NCBI GenBank assembly: GCA_016872385.1
Contig: VGZV01000006.1
Location: forward strand, 768 to 64,767
Length of the DNA: 64,000 nucleotides
Direction: 5' to 3'
From: SAR202 cluster bacterium
GTDB lineage: Bacteria > Chloroflexota > Dehalococcoidia > Lucifugimonadales > UBA3495
The stretch's first letter is position 1. Each line of letters opens with the position of its first letter. The translations under genes were made by a program, and so were the position numbers. The notes beneath the pieces are model-generated. The model was not told the origin of the DNA and searched no databases. It saw only the letters and a list, made by a program, of their open reading frames with translations. This document shows positions 410-60,389 of the stretch, piece after piece.

Positions 410-542
410 AGTATGTCAGTTTACCCCAGGCTCGACTCGTCGCACCCCGACAAGTCGGGATGCCCAGATACTTACATGGATTATGTGTTCTCCTGGATTC
501 CGGCTTCCGCCGGAATGACGAACGGCTAATTGATACACTACC
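410..542 (+). mobile_element. MITE-like non-autonomous element, family F, copy 1 (133 bp)
   Basis: Flanked by identical 11-bp TTAAAGGCGGC at 399-409 and 543-553. Imperfect terminal inverted repeats (AGTATGTCAGTTTA / TAATTGATACACTACC). Internal hairpins CCCGACAAGTCGGG and ATTCCGGCTTCCGCCGGAAT. Two further copies in the window. Confidence 0.75.
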
Positions 543-38775: not shown

Positions 38776-38857
38776 AAAACATTCCGTGTCCTATATACGA
38801 CATTAATCAGTTAACACGATTATAGGCTGGCCCCCATCGGCGGTCAAAAACCCCGGT

Positions 38858-38991
38858 AGTGTATCAATTAGCCCTTCGTCGTTCCGGCTTGCGCCGGAAC
38901 CCAGTGGTGCGTATCAGCCATGTCCCTATCTGGGCATCCCGACTTGTCGGGGTGCGACCAGTTGAGTCCTTAAGCAAACTGAGACACTACT
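38858..38991 (-). mobile_element. MITE-like element family F, copy 2 (134 bp, inverted relative to copy 1)
   Basis: Flanked by identical 11-bp AAAACCCCGGT at 38847-38857 and 38992-39002. Same internal hairpins as copy 1. Confidence 0.75.
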
Positions 38992-39006
38992 AAAACCCCG
39001 GTTTGG

Positions 39007-39035
39007 TTGACATCCAAAGGGTGCTGGGCTATATT
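39007..39035 (+). promoter_or_regulatory. Sigma-70-like promoter (TTGACA-17 nt-TATATT) driving the cobalamin riboswitch and cbi operon
   Basis: Near-consensus hexamers at 39007-39012 and 39030-39035, about 60 nt upstream of the riboswitch core. Confidence 0.6.
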
Positions 39036-53500: not shown

Positions 53501-54591
53501 AGGCATTGCCCCGGGGCAGATACTACTGGCGCGTCCGCTCCGTGGACGGCGCATACAACGAAAGCAGCTGGTCGGAGCCAATCGTACTGCGGTCGGGCCT
53601 GATGCCTCTTTGGGCGCTAATCGGCTTAGTGCTGGTGGCGCTGGCCGCCGTGGGCGGGGCCGGAGTTTTCGGTTACCTGTACTTCTTCCGCCGCAAGACC
53701 GAGGTAATCCGCGTAGGAGAGGTGGCTGTTCCTACCCCGGTGCCGGGTTATTTCCGGGAATTGAGCGCACCAGAAGAAGCCGCCAAGCCCCAGCAGCAGC
53801 GCGCCTTGGGACTGCCGTCCCGGCTGGCGCTTCCTGGGGCCACCAGCAGCAGAAGGCCGCGGGTGTTATCGCCCCAGGAGCAGGGGCGGCTGAAAATCCT
53901 GGCGGAGTTTGCCAAGTCCCTGCCCCTGATTCAAGTGGGGTATGACGCCGACTGGCTACAAGAGGTGGCCTCCAGCGCCAACGGCGAAGGTTCTCCCGAG
54001 GCAGTCCGCGAGCAGCTGCTGGCTGGCAACATTTCCCTCAATTACGAGCCTTCGTGGCAGAGCCATCCCCTGTACCTGGAACTGCGTAGCGTCCTGGACG
54101 GGCATCCTCTGCTCCAAGGCCTGGACAACTACATCGAATCCGTGAACCGTTGCGCCAGCGACGTTGCGGGCATGCTGCAGGAAATCTACCGGGAAACCTC
54201 AGGCATTGTGTCTGACGAGGCCATGCGCCGGGGCCGGTGGCAGTACGTTTATGCAGTTTACGCCGACGCCCTGGGCTGGTTCCGCGGCAAGTTCCTGCGG
54301 GAACCTTCGGAACGGGACTACTACATGCTGGCCGATGGCCAGGAGCCTGCTCAAGAAGAGGGCAACGTCATGTGGCTACGGGGAGCCGATGCCACACCCT
54401 TTGCCGGAGAGTTGGTGACTGCGCCAGACCAGGCAGGACTGCAGGAATCCCTGGAGCTGCACATCAGGCTGCGGCGGAACTACCGGAAGAACGAGCGGGC
54501 CAAGTCGCTGGTGGAGACGCTGGCCCAGTTGGAAGTCCAGCGGGACCGGCTGCTGGGCGCGCTGGGGCAGTTGGGCCAGATGGGCGGTTAG
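50593..54591 (+). CDS. Type I membrane surface protein: signal peptide, ten IPT/TIG-like Ig repeats, Fn3-like module, TM helix, ~300-aa cytoplasmic domain of unknown function
   Basis: 1332 aa. Ten ~87-aa repeats (consensus S.S.GPPGTSITVTG.GF..NE..I.LTYDG..VASGI.ANAQG.W...F.VP.S..G.H.I.A.G). YYWRVRSVDGAYNESSWS module. TM segment LMPLWALIGLVLVALAAVGGAGVFGYLYFF followed by RRK. Confidence 0.8.
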   Translation: MTKFKGSIGAVVLALALALASAAAGMGVLYAQTPSPGTISISPQAGTAGTVVTVTGTGFTVGETGISITYDGTAVLTNITATSGTFTQNYTIPSSTTTTHTFSGTRTSGTVNSVTFELLKPFISLSSSSGPPGASITVTGSNFRANETGISVTYDGATMVSGLNAGSNGGWSATFNAPSSLVGPHTIAASGSQTLASTVPSLTFTVSAGISASKNSGPVGTPVSVSGAGFAVNETGVNITFDGVNIASTTANAQGTWTANFTVPATASGNHTIGAFGRTTLATSVGTVAFTVQPAIALNKSTGAPGTSVTITGTGFAVSDTNINVTFGSTTVLSNLRADSKGGWSANFSVPTTSAGTHTVSAFGNGTPASSISDQSFTIGAGITLSRPSGPPGSSITVTGTGFGANESGIVITYDGTPVASGIAANSVGAWTGSFSVPVSAAGSHVVRAFGGVGGGGSSGDASFTASPTITLSKSSGAPGTSITVNGAGFGANERSISLTFDGVQIASGINANAQGSWVTTINIPGSGSGAHTIAATGSSSSQSTGVDAPFTVGSGLTLSRSSGPPGTAITVGGAGYAPNERNINLTYDGVQVASGITANAQGAWTYNFTVPPSPTGSHTIAAGGASSQGAPPDTVYSVTPALSLNRTSGPPGTSIAVTGAGFGASERGITITFEGTPVASGINANAQGSWTQNVVAPPSPAGARALSASGPITQTFGNSDVTFIVAAELTVNRHTGAPGTPITVGGAGFASGEGSITLTFDGTPVASGITANAQGGWSATFAIPAAAAGPHEIKASGSATQGASAPDFRFAVVPVVSISPNTGNVGMRTEVTGSGFSPNASLAITFGEEQIRGGAVTANGAGSFSFAVVIPRARAGAQALKIVDGDRNEAQVSFTIEGVPPRMPGPLTPKNNERMGLLGNISPTLTWSNLHDPSGVTYALQIDANPSFSRPILEKFDLTSPSYTLAPGEALPRGRYYWRVRSVDGAYNESSWSEPIVLRSGLMPLWALIGLVLVALAAVGGAGVFGYLYFFRRKTEVIRVGEVAVPTPVPGYFRELSAPEEAAKPQQQRALGLPSRLALPGATSSRRPRVLSPQEQGRLKILAEFAKSLPLIQVGYDADWLQEVASSANGEGSPEAVREQLLAGNISLNYEPSWQSHPLYLELRSVLDGHPLLQGLDNYIESVNRCASDVAGMLQEIYRETSGIVSDEAMRRGRWQYVYAVYADALGWFRGKFLREPSERDYYMLADGQEPAQEEGNVMWLRGADATPFAGELVTAPDQAGLQESLELHIRLRRNYRKNERAKSLVETLAQLEVQRDRLLGALGQLGQMGG

Positions 54592-54674
54592 AGCTTGTGT
54601 GACGATTCCCGCTCATCCTGAGCTTGTCGAACCACGGGCGGGCTGGGTAGACGGCATTTCTCACACAGGCTCTT
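54590..54674. repeat. Family C element with 20-bp terminal inverted repeats
   Basis: AGAGCTTGTGTGACGATTCC...GCATTTCTCACACAGGCTCT ends around a CCCGCTCATCCTGAGCTTGTCGAACCACGGGCGGG hairpin. Starts within the stop codon of the preceding gene. Confidence 0.7.
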
Positions 54675-54706
54675 AGTCCCCTCATGCCAGTCCGGCGGCT
54701 GGGTAT

Positions 54707-55117
54707 TCAGGCCAATTGCAGCAACTGCACGATATTGCCATCGGGGTCTTTAAAGGTGGCAACCCAGCCGCCCCAGTGCTCCTGCTCAGGAGGACGGATG
54801 AACTCCACTCCTTCCTGGCGCAGACGCAGGCACTCGCTGTGAATCTCATCCACGCCCAGGTGAGGCATAATGCGGTAGGGGTCGGCGGCTTCGCCGCTCA
54901 CCCTGCTGTGCAGGCCTACGTTTAGCCGCAACTCCCCCAACTGGAAGGCCACAAAATGGCCGTGGTGAGAGTGCACTGGCAGCCGCAACACCCTCTGGTA
55001 AAAGTCCACCATCTTATCCAGATTGCTGGTCCAGAGAGTAACGCCCACCAGGCTGGTTATCACTGAGAGGCCGTGGCGGGCTGGGACGCCTGACCTGCGG
55101 CGCAGCGGCGGCAGCAA
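54707..55117 (-). CDS. VOC/glyoxalase-family protein
   Basis: 136-aa ORF with the paired beta-alpha-beta-beta-beta pattern (VGVTLWTSNLDKMVDFY, FKDPDGNIVQL). Its 5' end overlaps the Fur-family gene by 58 nt, so the start is probably internal. Confidence 0.65.
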   Translation of the reverse strand: MLPPLRRRSGVPARHGLSVITSLVGVTLWTSNLDKMVDFYQRVLRLPVHSHHGHFVAFQLGELRLNVGLHSRVSGEAADPYRIMPHLGVDEIHSECLRLRQEGVEFIRPPEQEHWGGWVATFKDPDGNIVQLLQLA

Positions 55118-55512
55118 CCGTAGAAGTCCACCCTTTGCCAGCCAATCTCAAAGTTGGCATCCCGCGCAACCTGGTTCTTCAGCCGCACCACCGCCTGGTG
55201 CCCCTGCTGGGCATCCACCACGTCGCCGCACTGGACACATACCAGGTTAACGTGGGGGTCCAGGTTAGGCTCATAGCGGGATACCTTCTGGAAGGGAAGC
55301 TCCTGGATCAAGCCGCTCTGTTCCAGCACGTCCAGGGTGGAGTAAATGGTGGCCAGGGTCATGGAAGGAAAGTGTTGGCGGACCCGCTCGTAAATCTGCT
55401 GCACCGAAGGGTGGTCAGAGGAGTTCAGCACCGCCTCGGCAATGGCCAGCCGCTGGGGAGTGACCCGGACACCCCACTGGCGCAGACGGGCAGCCAACTG
55501 TTGTTGCATCAT
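55060..55512 (-). CDS. Fur-family transcriptional regulator
   Basis: VTPQRLAIAEAVL...TIYSTLDVLEQSGLI winged helix, then CVQCG...CRRC metal site. Confidence 0.85.
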   Translation of the reverse strand: MMQQQLAARLRQWGVRVTPQRLAIAEAVLNSSDHPSVQQIYERVRQHFPSMTLATIYSTLDVLEQSGLIQELPFQKVSRYEPNLDPHVNLVCVQCGDVVDAQQGHQAVVRLKNQVARDANFEIGWQRVDFYGCCRRCAAGQASQPATASQ

Positions 55513-55595
55513 GGCAGCACTCCTCCGTGAAGAGGACTGTTTCCTGCACTATAACGCTGAGGACTGCGCCTTGCAACTTGGGGGTGGTTGAGCAG

Positions 55596-55726
55596 CAGGG
55601 CCTTTTGATTCTCGGCCCGCTCGTCGTGGCGCCCCGACGAGTCGGGGCGCGCCCTGGACAGGCCCATCAGCCGCAGGGCAGCCACATAGGTCTGCCCCTA
55701 CCTTCAGAGACAATCGAAAGACCCTG
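55596..55726 (-). mobile_element. MITE-like element family G, copy 1 (131 bp)
   Basis: Flanked by identical 10-bp GGTTGAGCAG at 55586-55595 and 55727-55736. Terminal inverted repeats CAGGGCCTTTTGATTCTC / GACAATCGAAAGACCCTG. Internal hairpin CGCCCCGACGAGTCGGGGCG. Confidence 0.8.
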
Positions 55727-55744
55727 GGTTGAGCAGCAGGCCGC

Positions 55745-55773
55745 TTGCAAACCCAGTGCCGCCGGTCTATCCT
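55745..55773 (+). promoter_or_regulatory. Promoter candidate (TTGCAA-17 nt-TATCCT) for tRNA-Ser
   Basis: Hexamers at 55745-55750 and 55768-55773. The -10 ends 11 nt before the mature tRNA 5' end. Confidence 0.45.
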
Positions 55774-55784
55774 GGGAATGGGTT

Positions 55785-55875
55785 GGAGAGATGGCCGAGC
55801 GGTTGAAGGCGCCGGTCTCGAAAACCGGTATGGGCCTTTGGTCCATCGTGGGTTCGAATCCCACTCTCTCCGCCA
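55785..55875 (+). tRNA. tRNA-Ser (anticodon CGA)
   Basis: Acceptor GGAGAGA/TCTCTCC, anticodon stem CCGGT/ACCGG with loop CTCGAAA, long variable arm, T arm GTGGG-TTCGAAT-CCCAC, discriminator G, encoded CCA. Confidence 0.9.
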
Positions 55876-55996
55876 GCCTTGTTTCCTCCCAGTGCCAGCC
55901 AAGTCATAGCCAGTTCTCCAGCCAAACTCCATTTCCAGCCAGGCCAATCGCGCAGCCTAATTTGCCACGAATTCAGAATGTGAGGTAACCACAACA

Positions 55997-57145
55997 ATGC
56001 CAGGGAAAAGGATAGTCATTATTGGGGGCGGTTTTGGCGGTGCAGCCGCGGCCCGGACTGCCCGCCAGTTTTGGGCCGCGACCACGAAGTAACCGTAATT
56101 GATCGCAGCAAGCAGGCCTACCTGTGCGGTTCTTTTCCCCTGCTCATCGTGGGAGAGCGGGAGTCCAACAAGGTGCGCCGCTCTCTGGGCAGCCTTACCC
56201 GCCGCGGCGTCCGGCACCTGGAAGCCGAAGTAGAGAGCGTGGATACCTCGTCCCACACAGTGACCACTTCCGCAGGCAAGCAGGAGTATGATTACCTGGT
56301 GCTGGCCTCGGGCGCAGTTTATGACTGGGACGCCGTCCCTGGGGCCAGGAACGCCTACTCTTTCTACAATATAGACACGGCCCGCCGCCTGCGCCGCAAG
56401 CTGGCTTCTTTCCGCAATGGCCGGGTAATTATTGCGGTGGCCTCATTGCCCTACAAGTGCCCGCCTGCGCCCTTTGAAACCTCGCTGGTGCTGGACTGGG
56501 CATTTACGCGCAGCGGCGTGCGGCGGGACGTGGAAATCCACGTTTTCACGCCGGAACCCATGCCCCCTGGCAGTGGCCGGGCCCCAGGCGGGCGCTAAAC
56601 TGTTGGGCGACATGCAGGCCAGGGGCATCCAGCCCCACACCAACGCGGCGATTAAAGAGGTCTCCAGAGATGGCCGCCAGGCCCTGTTCAGCGACGGCTC
56701 CACCCTGGATGCAGACTTGGTTATCACGGTGCCCACTCACCGGGCGTCCCCCCTGGCGCGGGCAGCGGGGCTGGCTGGGCAGTCTGGCTGGGTAGATGTC
56801 AAGCCAGACACCCTGGAAACCAGGGTGCCCAATGTCTATGCCATTGGCGACGTGAACAATGTCCCCATGGCCAATGGCCGGGGCATCCCCAAAGCTGGCG
56901 TGTTTGCTTCCGCCGAGGGCGAGACCGTGGCTCGCAACATCGCCGCCGCGGTGCTGGGGACTCCGCCAGCCAAATTTGCCGGCGAGGGCTACTGCTTCAT
57001 TCTGTACGGCGGAAACCAGGCAGGGTCCATCCGCGGCCAGTTCCTGGCGGCAGAGCGGCCGGTAGTGAACTTGCAGGGGGCCAGTCCTGAAGGGTATCAG
57101 GGCAAGGAGCAGTTTGAAGCGGACTGGCGCGCATTCAGAATATAG
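55997..57145 (+). pseudogene. Sulfide:quinone-reductase-like FAD/NAD(P) oxidoreductase interrupted by two frameshifts
   Basis: The protein is split over three frames: MPGKRIVIIGGGFGGAAAARTARQ (55997-), LGRDHEVTVIDRS...HVFTPEPMP (56071 frame) and LAVAGPQAGAKLL...YAIGDV... (56432 frame). The junctions fall at a TTTT run near 56059-56062 and a CCCCC run near 56563-56567. Confidence 0.7.
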
Positions 57146-57221
57146 GCTGAATTAGCGGCGCAGGATTGCGCCATCCGGGGCATCCCAGCCAGTACGGGAT
57201 GCCCCGTTTATTTGCGGCCAG

Positions 57222-58247
57222 CTACTTGGCGGGATACTCTATCCGGTACACCTTCGCCGCCGTATCGTGGAACATGGCGGCTCGCTCCGTGGGCGAGTAG
57301 CCCTTGGACAGCCGCTTGAAGGCGTTGAACAGCACGTGGTAGGAAGATGATACCTTGTCCGGCGGGAAGTTGCTTTCAAACATGCACCGGTTGGGACCAA
57401 ACTGCTCAATGCAGTAGTTCATGAGCGGGGCCAGACTGCGGGCCAGCTCTTCGGAACCGATGGGCTTTTCCCGGGTATGCCAGTCAAAGCCGGTGCGGGT
57501 CATGCCAACGCCGCCCAGCTTGCAGTAAACGTTGGGGCACTTGGCTAACTCGGCAATGTTCTTGCGCCAGGCGCCCATTACCTCTTCGTCCTTGTTGGCG
57601 TAAGGGCCAACCCGCATCAGCCCGCCAATGTGGTTGAGCACAATGGTCAGGTTAGGCACAGTCCTGGCCAGGTCCGCCAGGTCGGGAAGCTGGTGAAAAT
57701 ACATCCAGCCCTCCAGGGACAGGCCCATCTTGGCCAGTTCCCGTGCGCCAGCCCGGAAGTTGCTGGAGGTCATGATGTTTTTGGGCTGCCTGCTTTCCAC
57801 TTCCGGGTGGGGGTCCCAGTTCACCGAGTGGCGAATGCCGCGGAAGCGGTTGGGGCTGGCGGCCTTGAGGGCATCCAGGACTGGCTTCACCTTCTCGCCC
57901 AGTTTCAAATCGGCATGGCCCACAATGGCGGCGGCCACCCGGCAAGGGCCGTACATCCCGCTGGCGCTGGCGGCGGCCAGCCCCTGCACAAACTCCACCT
58001 CTCCCACAGGCTTCATCTCCACCGGGCCGCTGGCGCGGTACATGGAACGGGCTTCGATGAATACCGTGGAGCGGATATTGTGCCCGCTGTTCACGTCGGC
58101 GGCCAGCTCGTGCAACAGGTAGCGCTGGTAGGGGATTCGCTCCATCCGCATGTCCCAGAAATGGTGGTGCGGATCGCAGATGGGCAGTTCGGGTTCCAGG
58201 GTCGGTTCCTGCGTCAAGGCCAGCCAGTCGTTCCCGCCGTAAGGCAT
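57222..58247 (-). CDS. Amidohydrolase-2 (TIM-barrel metal-dependent hydrolase) family protein
   Basis: ATG at 58247 preceded by GGAGGAG. ICDPHHHFWD metal-binding motif. The longer ORF to 58412 has no support. Confidence 0.8.
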   Translation of the reverse strand: MPYGGNDWLALTQEPTLEPELPICDPHHHFWDMRMERIPYQRYLLHELAADVNSGHNIRSTVFIEARSMYRASGPVEMKPVGEVEFVQGLAAASASGMYGPCRVAAAIVGHADLKLGEKVKPVLDALKAASPNRFRGIRHSVNWDPHPEVESRQPKNIMTSSNFRAGARELAKMGLSLEGWMYFHQLPDLADLARTVPNLTIVLNHIGGLMRVGPYANKDEEVMGAWRKNIAELAKCPNVYCKLGGVGMTRTGFDWHTREKPIGSEELARSLAPLMNYCIEQFGPNRCMFESNFPPDKVSSSYHVLFNAFKRLSKGYSPTERAAMFHDTAAKVYRIEYPAK

Positions 58248-58421
58248 AAAGGCTCCTCCAGTGCAACATTTAAAAGTACGGGTACATAATACCGCAAAGC
58301 GGGCTGGGCGTCTGTGGGCCAGCTTGGTTGCACCGCCTGCTGGCGACAAAGAATAACTGATAAAGGCTGCTATCCATTGGCAGCGGGGTCTGGAACGACC
58401 CCGCCCTGTCACCTCATCCCC

Positions 58422-58552
58422 CAGGGTCTTTCTATTGTCCCCGAATGTAGGGGCAGACCTATGTGTCTGCCCTGCGACTGATGGGCCTGTCCAGGGCGCG
58501 CCCCGACGAGTCGGGGCGCTCCTACCAGCGGGCCTAGACTCGAAAGACCCTG
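58422..58552 (+). mobile_element. MITE-like element family G, copy 2 (131 bp, inverted relative to copy 1)
   Basis: Flanked by identical 10-bp CCTCATCCCC at 58412-58421 and 58553-58562. Ends CAGGGTCTTTCTATTGTC / GACTCGAAAGACCCTG. Confidence 0.8.
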
Positions 58553-58570
58553 CCTCATCCCCAGCGGCTC

Positions 58571-58599
58571 TTGACGCACCCTGGCTTCCCGTGTTTAGC
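58571..58599 (+). promoter_or_regulatory. Weak promoter candidate (TTGACG-17 nt-TTTAGC)
   Basis: Good -35 at 58571-58576, poor -10. Upstream of the TPP-enzyme gene. Confidence 0.2.
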
Positions 58600-58709
58600 T
58601 TCCCCCAGCAGCGGGTCCCTCCTTTCCAATTTGCTTTTCGGAAAAGGTTGCTGGCCGCTTCTGCTCAATCACTCATCCCAGGAATGAACTTGGCTAAGAT
58701 TAGCCCCAG

Positions 58710-60389
58710 ATGAAGGAGGACTGCCCGATGGCTATAGATGTCGCTACTGGCATCGCCCGCATTCTCAAGCAAGAGGGGGTGGAATGGGTGTCCACTTTCC
58801 CGGTCTGCCGGGTGAACAATGCCCTGGGCCGTGAAGGCGTGCCCATGATTATGATGCGCGACGACCGTTATGCGGTGGCGGTGGCCGATGCTTATTCCCG
58901 CATTACCGCCGGAAGGCGCATTGGAGTATGCACCTTTCAGGGCGGCATCAACGCCGCCGGTATGCAGTACGCTTACCCTGGCATGGCCCAGGCCTACGAG
59001 GACGGCTCCCCGGTGCTGTGCATTACCGACGGCGTGCCCATTGGCAGTTCCGGAAATAGCCAGTTTGACGTTACTTCCAGCATGAAGACCGTGTCCAAGT
59101 GGTTTGGGTACGTTGATAAGCCGGAGCGGCTGCCCGAGTTCATGCGCCGGGCGTTTACCATGCTGCGCAGCGGGCGGCCTGGCCCGGTAATCCTGGCCAT
59201 TCCCGACACTTCCGGGACCTACGATGAAACGGCTGACCCATACATGACGGTCAAGGGCTGGAAGGCGGCTCCGGACCCAGAGGATGTGGCGTTTGCGGTG
59301 CAGTTGCTCCTGAAAGCCCGGAATCCCCTCATTTACGCCGGCGAAGGCGTTATCTACGCAGGGGCTTCCGCCGAGTTGAAGGCCTTTGCTGAATTGGTCA
59401 ACGCGCCGGTGATAACCACCCTGAAAGCCAAGGGTGCTTTCCCGGAGAATCACCCCCTGTTTGTGGGCGTCCGCGGCGACCACGTCTCCGACTACCTGGC
59501 CAACAGCGACCTGATCCTGGCGGTGGGTTCCAGCCTGTCGCCAGGCCGGTTCAGCCACGGCATTCCTGGCGCGGTCAACAAGACCATCATTCACTGCATC
59601 GTTGACGAACTGCACGTGAACAAATCCTATCCCACGACCCAGGCAATTATCGGCGACGCCCGCTACACGCTTCAGGCCCTAATCCGGGAGGTATCCGCCA
59701 GCACCGCCGAGGCTGGGCGGCCAGCCGGGAAAGTGGCCGCAGAGGTGAAGGCCGCCAGGGACGCCGGAATGGCCAAGTACCGGGAACTGATGCGCTCCAG
59801 CGACAAGCCCATTAACCCCTACCGTGTCTACGGCGACATGATGAAGGTGCTGGACCCACTGAACTCCTTTGTCACCCATGAATCGGGAAATACCCGCGAC
59901 CAGTTGAGCACAGTTTATGACACGCTGGTGCCCCGGGGGTTTCTGGGCTGGGGCAACGTTTCCACCCTGGGCTTTGGCCTGGCTGCGTCCATAGCGGCCA
60001 AACTGGCCCAGCCGGACCGGCCCGCAGTTACGGTCACTGGCGAGGCGGGCCTGGGCTACATGCTGGGCAACCTGGAAGCGCCCTTGCGCCAGAAGCTGGG
60101 TATAACCATTGCCCACATCAGCAACGGCGGGTTCGCCGGTTATGGCCCCGGGTTCTGGGGCCAGGGCCACGACCCCTTTACCCACAAGGTGCTGGGGTAC
60201 GACGAGGTGGACATGTCCAAGGTAGTTGGGCAGCTGGGCCTTCACTCGGAACGGGTCACCGAACCCGCGGAAGTAATTCCCGCCCTGCGCCGCGCCCTGG
60301 CCGCCAACCAGTCGGGGCAGCCGTCCTACATTGAGTTCATCTGCAGCCAGTACCCAGTGTACGGCCGCTGGGTGGGCCGGCAAGACTAG
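58710..60389 (+). CDS. Thiamine-diphosphate-dependent enzyme (acetolactate synthase / sulfoacetaldehyde acetyltransferase-like)
   Basis: 559 aa with three-domain TPP-enzyme layout and TPP-binding region VTGEAGLGYMLGNLEA...NGG. The start could be the ATG at 58728. Confidence 0.8.
   Translation: MKEDCPMAIDVATGIARILKQEGVEWVSTFPVCRVNNALGREGVPMIMMRDDRYAVAVADAYSRITAGRRIGVCTFQGGINAAGMQYAYPGMAQAYEDGSPVLCITDGVPIGSSGNSQFDVTSSMKTVSKWFGYVDKPERLPEFMRRAFTMLRSGRPGPVILAIPDTSGTYDETADPYMTVKGWKAAPDPEDVAFAVQLLLKARNPLIYAGEGVIYAGASAELKAFAELVNAPVITTLKAKGAFPENHPLFVGVRGDHVSDYLANSDLILAVGSSLSPGRFSHGIPGAVNKTIIHCIVDELHVNKSYPTTQAIIGDARYTLQALIREVSASTAEAGRPAGKVAAEVKAARDAGMAKYRELMRSSDKPINPYRVYGDMMKVLDPLNSFVTHESGNTRDQLSTVYDTLVPRGFLGWGNVSTLGFGLAASIAAKLAQPDRPAVTVTGEAGLGYMLGNLEAPLRQKLGITIAHISNGGFAGYGPGFWGQGHDPFTHKVLGYDEVDMSKVVGQLGLHSERVTEPAEVIPALRRALAANQSGQPSYIEFICSQYPVYGRWVGRQD

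Follow-up and report, generated by a model that had tools for sequence, protein, structure and literature searches.

A miniature element upstream of a tRNA-Ser promoter in a SAR202 cluster bacterium, very probably moved by a promoter-homing ISAs1-family transposase

Introduction

In a 64,000-nucleotide stretch of DNA from a SAR202 cluster bacterium (contig VGZV01000006.1 of assembly GCA_016872385.1, positions 768 to 64,767; here "the window," with positions counted from its first letter), a 131-bp repeat that we call family G lies just upstream of the promoter of a tRNA-Ser gene. A second copy in the window has the same distance between its end and a −35-like hexamer. Why should a repeat that bears the marks of a mobile element keep a constant distance from promoters? 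Here we show that family G is a miniature inverted-repeat transposable element (MITE). We consider it highly likely that it is moved by a promoter-homing transposase of the ISAs1 family of insertion sequences (IS), landing 18 to 19 bp before the −35 box.

The genome under study (G000) is a 2.70-Mb metagenome-assembled genome (MAG) of 61% GC, in 111 contigs and 96.9% complete. For comparison we used two sister species (G001 and G002), a member of another genus of the same family (G005), and genomes of other genera, including G009.

Results

Copy 1 of family G (positions 55596 to 55726, plus strand) is noncoding and is bounded by a perfect 10-bp target site duplication, GGTTGAGCAG, at 55586 to 55595 and 55727 to 55736. 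Beyond the right duplication come an 8-nt spacer, CAGGCCGC, and the host promoter of the tRNA-Ser gene (55745 to 55773, plus strand), in which TTGCAA (55745 to 55750) and TATCCT (55768 to 55773) are 17 nt apart. The initial annotation had described this element, its duplication, and a promoter 8 nt past it that leads to tRNA-Ser at 55785, and all of these coordinates were confirmed. The tRNA gene itself (anticodon CGA, 55785 to 55875, plus strand) was identified by ARAGORN and Rfam. On the other side, a second TTGCAA lies 9 nt beyond the left duplication. It forms the −35 box of a divergent host promoter, TTGCAA-17-TATAGT (55548 to 55576, minus strand), behind which stands a gene for a Fur-family (PerR-like) regulator (55060 to 55512, minus strand). 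Copy 1 is thus placed midway between two back-to-back promoters. The flanking identity at this copy amounts to 14 bp because the element and its downstream flank both start with CAGG.

We searched the whole of G000 with nhmmer, using a profile built from eight copies, and found the family G superfamily at 91 separate loci; more are present in G001 and G002. The build is the same at all loci, with CAGGG...CCCTG ends, an inverted repeat of about 20 bp, and two GC-rich hairpin modules between. Lengths range from 124 to 152 bp, so that the figure of exactly 131 bp given by the initial annotation applies to copies 1 and 2 but not to the family. Copies are 75 to 88% identical to one another. We regarded a copy as well bounded if its 10-bp duplication matched at 7 or more of the 10 positions, and 28 copies in G000 qualified; many of their duplications are perfect, and the sequences are all different. 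Short, noncoding, dispersed, and equipped with terminal inverted repeats and a target site duplication, family G is a MITE by these criteria.

We then asked how family G copies are placed relative to promoters. Offsets were counted outward from the element end, with offset 0 as the first duplicated base, and the background rate of TTG was taken from offsets 25 to 61 of the same flanks. Boundaries were scored from the terminal pentamers and from how well the two flanking 10-mers agreed, and from nothing else; sequence further out therefore had no influence. The additional copies proved to keep the spacing seen in the window: TTG occurred at offset 18 or 19 at 18 of the 56 ends, against 2.2 expected (p = 4e-12), and these ends belong to 17 of the 28 elements. 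Eleven of the occurrences were at offset 18 and seven at offset 19, with about one per position elsewhere. The longer motif TTGAC behaved in the same way (four at offset 18, three at offset 19, and one elsewhere within offsets 0 to 54), and the reverse motif GTCAA gave no peak in the same flanks. A simple −35/−10 score likewise peaked at offsets 18 to 19 only. The promoter was on the right at 10 ends and on the left at 8.

Because the idea of a fixed offset had arisen in G000, it was tested on data outside its discovery. In G001 and G002 (16 well-bounded copies), 12 of 32 ends had TTG at offset 18 or 19, where 1.1 were expected (p = 2e-10). Two further sets consisted of autonomous ISAs1 elements. 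Those of G005 (19 copies) had TTG at these offsets at 12 of 37 ends (p = 3e-10). A public sample, for which one genome per species was scanned, yielded 80 loci, from which bounding by inverted repeat and duplication left 40 elements; 20 of their 80 ends were in register, compared with 2.9 expected (p = 9e-12). At those 80 ends TTG was found 3, 6, and 14 times at offsets 17, 18, and 19 (background, about 1.3 per position), TTGAC was found 1, 4, and 7 times at the same three offsets, and TANNNT was found 7 and 8 times at offsets 41 and 42. Promoters lay about equally on either side of the transposase gene. The fixed register was thus present in four data sets, with p below 1e-9 in each.

The −10 box is in register as well. 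Among the 30 TTG-bearing ends of G000, G001, and G002, TANNNT was found at offsets 41 to 43 at 17. We also looked at the 17 elements that lack an in-register TTG on either side. Sequences matching TATAAT at 5 or more of 6 positions were present at offsets 41 to 43 at 8 of their 34 ends, compared with about 0.5 expected, and several of these −10 boxes carry a TG extension. As −10 boxes pile up at offsets 41 to 43 even in the absence of TTG, the register refers to the promoter as a whole and survives a weak −35 box.

A constant distance could also arise if the hexamer were borne by the element, or if the element were kept as a regulatory module (an UP element or an insulator) whose spacing reflects its function. 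The element does take the place of positions −44 to −60, a region used by UP elements and activators, and it forms a strong hairpin. The hexamer, however, lies outside the duplication. When 62 promoter-side ends were aligned on TTG, no position of the duplication or of the spacer reached 0.35 bit, and both the 8- to 9-nt spacers and the duplications differed at every copy. Apart from TTG, the alignment showed only a preference for A at the next position (58%) and the A/T signal of the −10 box at +24 to +28. The initial annotation had named a conserved spacer and hexamer as the finding that would make the promoter element-borne; no conserved spacer base was found, and orthologous promoters exist without the element. 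In G001 no element is present between the perR-like gene and tRNA-Ser, and the spacer, which has diverged and differs by 18 bp, keeps both promoters: TTGAAA-N18-TATGCT for the tRNA gene and TATAGT-17-TTGCCA for that of the regulator. G009, also without the MITE, has TTGAAA..TATTCT before its tRNA-Ser gene. Since the promoters that flank copy 1 exist in relatives that lack the MITE, they predate the insertion. Autonomous 1.2-kb ISAs1 copies with different ends hold the same register, and another family of different sequence, described below, holds a register of its own. The promoter hexamers are therefore target derived and host owned, and we regard an element-borne hexamer or a regulatory module as very unlikely.

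The parent of family G was expected to be an IS with CAGGG termini and a 10-bp duplication, and the family with these properties is ISAs1. In G002, contig C92 terminates in CAGGGCCTTTCGATTATTGG, all 20 nt of which recur as the end of a G001 MITE and 17 to 18 of which match the window copies; further in, the MITE interior is unrelated to the IS. About 85 nt inward of CAGGGCCTTTCGATTATTGG an open reading frame (ORF) starts, MNGQ...LPDPRSAHGRRHPLGAVLALSVCAML, that matches the ISAs1 N-terminal domain PF13808 (E = 4e-6). Two types of ISAs1 element are present in G005, and both make 10-bp duplications. Type 1 is 1,232 bp long and has 13 copies, of which 12 are full length at 99.8 to 100% identity and one is truncated; type 2, of about 1,212 bp, has six copies, and NF033564 matches its transposase at 392 bits. 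The 40 public ISAs1 elements all have CAGGG-type ends and 10-bp duplications that match at 9 to 10 of 10 positions. They come from Dehalococcoidia, Chloroflexia, Alpha-, Gamma-, and Deltaproteobacteria, Verrucomicrobia, Planctomycetota, and others, and the nearest named ISAs1-bearing relatives are Dehalococcoidia MAGs. Judged by its ends, the predicted parent of family G is an ISAs1-family IS, in line with the initial expectation. Because homing holds across autonomous ISAs1 elements, it is a property of the transposase family, and the MITE inherits it.

Three DDE_Tnp_1 candidates in G000 itself were considered as the parent and rejected: a decayed IS5-type gene (contig C26), an IS5-type gene (C108), and an IS1634-type gene (C110). 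The ends of the IS1634-type element are GCCCATGTTCCGC... and not CAGGG. The decayed IS5-type transposase gene (two frames with an internal stop; C26:26800-27700, L001) adjoins a truncated G-type MITE, and this element probably inserted in or beside the MITE. Elsewhere in G000, the repeats GTGTCAACTCAAACAAGAATGTTACCGAAGG and CGTGTTGCGTCAATAGAAACTGTTACCGAAGG adjoin MITE copies at contig ends (C63:147-271, C94, and the end of C108; C82 and C69). They look like the ends of another, unassembled multicopy element.

The G005 elements bear on a different explanation, namely, that insertion is random and that copies survive only where they happen to lie shortly before a promoter. In a compact genome such as this one, genic insertions would be purged; the family G copies examined here are also old, at 75 to 88% identity. 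Survivorship, however, predicts a depletion at core promoters and a flat distribution further upstream, whereas the data show a peak 2 nt wide, with background values at offsets 20 to 60. Moreover, the recent 1,232-bp set of G005 is already in register at 6 of 13 copies, and the presence of the register in near-identical copies speaks against slow selection as its cause. We find survivorship hardly credible.

Other features of the G005 elements deserve mention. In the 1,232-bp IS (L098 to L110, G005:C1) the transposase frame is broken at GGAAAAAAAGCGGG, with the homologous protein carried on in the −1 frame. Programmed slippage on the A run could explain the break, or the copy could be defective and have been spread in trans by the other ISAs1 types. 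Two of these copies, L100 and L101 (G005:C1, at about 736 kb and about 1,003 kb), have swapped flanks: the left flank of one and the right flank of the other together form a 10-bp duplication, suggesting that recombination between these IS copies caused an inversion. Solo ends, CAGGGTCTTTCAATTGTCTCCAAATGTCATTT..., that resemble the right end of family G at about 90% identity are found at L011 (G005:C1:2523089-2526115, minus strand near position 1527) and at L018. The outward flank of the L011 solo end again reads 10 nt, 8 nt, and TTGACA.

How might such a transposase recognize a promoter? We modeled one ISAs1 transposase with AlphaFold2 from a 28-sequence alignment (mean predicted local distance difference test score [pLDDT], 90). 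The best match of the model in the PDB was the Tn5 transposase (E = 4e-9; template modeling [TM] score, about 0.55), followed by TnsB/Mu-type cores, and the enzyme is accordingly predicted by this model to be a compact Tn5-like DDE transposase. A fold search of solved structures found no sigma-region-4-like domain in it.

One possibility is direct recognition: on naked DNA, the transposase would read the TTGACA-like letters of the −35 box and cut at a set distance from them, with no role for RNA polymerase. The target has one strongly conserved feature, TTG, with A as the next base in 58% of cases; this TTG stays at offset 17 to 19 at any −35/−10 spacer length; and a habit kept across many phyla is easily explained if DNA alone is read. 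Against this, the 17 TTG-less elements still have −10 boxes at offsets 41 to 43 (the 8 of 34 ends noted above), the Tn5-like model has no extra DNA-binding domain that resembles sigma region 4, and the element's own ends generally lack a TTGACA-like motif. We give direct reading a substantial probability, though clearly less than an even one. The alternative is that the promoter is sensed through DNA held or bent by the RNA polymerase holoenzyme. We lean slightly toward this polymerase-guided sensing over direct reading of TTGACA, because insertions keep the register at promoters whose −35 box is poor and whose −10 box is good.

A separate and larger MITE superfamily, family F, is present at 153 loci in G000, two of them in the window (410 to 542 and 38858 to 38991, in the regions 399 to 586 and 38847 to 39035). 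Its ends are GGTAGTG...CACTACC. The initial annotation had ascribed a family-specific distance to this family too, and family F does have its own register; the duplication is 8 bp, however, with the −35 box 7 nt beyond, and not 11 bp with the box 4 nt beyond. The 59 well-bounded copies have 118 ends, of which 32 bear TTG at offset 15; TTGAC is seen there 14 times, and TANNNT is seen 13 times at offset 38. Taking offsets 14 to 16 together, TTG is present at 40 of 118 ends compared with 7.0 expected (p = 4e-20). This 15-bp register is that published for a group of Mutator-like transposases considered below. No parent was found for family F: no ISKra4 transposase is assembled in G000, G001, or G002, and the ISKra4 copies of G005 do not have GGTAGTG ends. 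Two unrelated MITE superfamilies in one small genome thus dock before promoters, each with its own ruler.

Copy 2 of family G (58422 to 58552, minus strand) lies in the opposite orientation to copy 1, with which it shares 88% identity. It is flanked by the duplication CCTCATCCCC (58412 to 58421 and 58553 to 58562), and 8 nt past the right duplication lies a TTGACG hexamer (58571 to 58576, plus strand), upstream of a gene for a thiamine pyrophosphate (TPP) enzyme (58710 to 60389). The length, duplication length, and 8-nt offset initially reported for this copy were all borne out. In a comparison with G001, about 60 nt before the TPP enzyme gene (AACTTGGCTAAGATTAGCCCC...AAGGAGG; 58665 to 58730 versus G001:C77) are conserved between the species and sequence further upstream is not. 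The conserved stretch may be the real promoter or leader of the gene. Beyond about 60 nt before the start codon the upstream region of copy 2 could not be aligned with G001, where synteny is broken.

Within copy 1, the left terminal inverted repeat, CAGGGCCTTTTGATTCTC (55596 to 55613, plus strand), is the part that matches the G002 IS end at 17 to 18 of 20 nt. The right one, GACAATCGAAAGACCCTG (55709 to 55726, plus strand; reverse complement, CAGGGTCTTTCGATTGTC), is complementary to it at 15 of 18 positions. Between them lie hairpin module 1, GGCGCCCCGACGAGTCGGGGCGCG (55628 to 55651), which is GC rich and is found alone elsewhere in G000 too, and hairpin module 2, GGGCAGCCACATAGGTCTGCCCCTAC (55676 to 55701). 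The whole copy folds into a long hairpin (DNA minimum free energy, −32.4 kcal/mol; z, −3.95). The hairpin at 55676 to 55701, GGGGCAGACCTATGTGTCTGCCCC, occurs at more than 30 other sites in G000 and in other genera as well: it stands alone in several genera that lack the MITE, as in G009, G013, and G014. It would be a free-standing module resembling repetitive extragenic palindromes (REP-like) that was acquired by the MITE, or the reverse. The listed ORFs across the copy 1 region are long GC-rich frames that run through tRNA-Ser too and are not genes of the element. An Rfam search of positions 54000 to 60000 returned tRNA only.

Discussion

We propose that family G retains only the ~20-bp ends of an ISAs1 element, placed around two unrelated GC-rich hairpin modules, and that an ISAs1 transposase, a Tn5-like DDE enzyme, would move it in trans and join it to the target with a 10-bp stagger. 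The transposase would home to promoters of the sigma-A/sigma-70 type such that the duplicated 10 bp end 8 to 9 bp upstream of the −35 hexamer. This would place the element end 18 to 19 bp from the −35 box and 41 to 43 bp from the −10 box. Either end could face the promoter because the two are nearly symmetric, and a pair of divergent promoters separated by about 27 bp, such as that at copy 1, would present a double target. As the core promoter and the gene are left intact and only upstream DNA is displaced, such an insertion would come at low cost to the host.

Several points weigh against this proposal. About 40% of family G copies have no TTG in register. No ISAs1 transposase (PF13808, NF033564) is assembled in G000 or G001, where repeats, as often in MAGs, may have been left unassembled, and we infer mobilization in G000. 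The G002 parent ends at a contig end, and its PF13808 match, at 29.7 bits, is below the curated cutoff. Exact empty sites of copies 1 and 2 were not found in metagenome contigs. The TTGACG beside copy 2 has a poor −10 box (TTTAGC), the conserved gene leader is nearer the start codon, and the hexamer may be inactive as a promoter. A crude ORF/GC3 caller assigned a codirectional gene start to about 17 of 25 promoter-like ends and to about half of the other ends, which is a weak difference. With regard to sensing, the constancy of the TTG offset (17 to 19) over spacer lengths, in a test of low power, fits direct reading of the −35 box equally well, and contact between the transposase and RNA polymerase in ISAs1 homing is inferred.

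A broader idea, which we put forward tentatively and hold at somewhat less than an even chance, is that ISAs1 independently evolved the use of the promoter-bound holoenzyme, or of its DNA bend near −45 to −55, as a landing mark, across at least six phyla. If this is true, promoter homing is a recurrent, convergent safe-haven strategy of bacterial transposons, and the register of each family (15 nt for F, 18 to 19 nt for G) reports how its transpososome docks on the initiation complex.

The placement of family G has practical consequences. It explains the constant distance between small repeats and promoters in this genome and many others, with promoters as landing sites and the repeats as neither promoter donors nor activator sites. 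It guards against annotating such repeats as regulatory motifs and makes each copy a free marker of a host promoter. The ISAs1 enzyme is also small, with a fold predicted to be close to that of the well-studied Tn5 transposase, and has natural substrates of about 130 bp.

The ISAs1 family (ISAs1, IS1358, and H-repeat/ISEc1) has CAGGG termini and a 10-bp duplication in common with family G. Its members are about 1.2 kb long with one transposase gene, whereas family G is a 131-bp noncoding element with an unrelated interior. We found no target preference described for ISAs1 in the searchable literature, a scope that leaves subscription journals and ISfinder/TnPedia text outside, and PMC3942029 does not mention ISAs1; a 2022 survey found ISAs1 over-represented between convergent genes. 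In the literature searched, promoter-upstream homing is published only for transposons unrelated to ISAs1.

Tn5 transposase is a cut-and-paste DDE enzyme, and its staggered duplication, at 9 bp, is similar in length to that of ISAs1. It has only a weak target consensus and is not known to home to promoters. Tn5/IS50 of the IS4 family (PDB 3ECP, 4DM0, and 1MM8) is the best structural match to the ISAs1 model, with about 12% sequence identity.

The closest published parallel in behavior is that of the TnGBS conjugative elements, the ISLre2 family, and the ISKra4 group, whose Mutator-like transposases insert 15 to 17 bp upstream of the sigma-A −35 box (Brochet et al. 2009; Guerillot et al. 2014, PMC3942029). 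Elements of this group with symmetric ends insert both ways, the habit is interpreted as a gene-sparing strategy, and contact with the transcription initiation complex has been proposed for them by analogy with Ty3 (Guerillot et al. 2014, PMC3942029). Family G resembles them in its fixed short distance upstream of a −35 box, its use of host promoters, and its occurrence in both orientations. It differs in its register of 18 to 19 bp rather than 15 to 17 bp, in its 10-bp duplication, and in being a MITE, in Chloroflexota. The enzymes differ as well, being of the ISAs1 (DDE_Tnp_1), Tn5-like type here and Mutator-like (p-MULT 3/4, with its signature motif) there. A second, structurally unrelated family of DDE transposases would thereby join the few bacterial promoter-upstream homers, with a habit that spans many phyla, and promoter sensing, for which a mechanism has been proposed in TnGBS, becomes approachable by comparing two enzyme folds with two registers.

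The yeast elements Ty3 and Ty1 are eukaryotic retroelements with an integrase, and their contact with TFIIIB or RNA polymerase III (Pol III) has been shown by experiment, whereas that of ISAs1 is putative. As is proposed for ISAs1, they take the transcription machinery at a promoter, in their case in Pol III start regions, as a landmark and avoid coding DNA.

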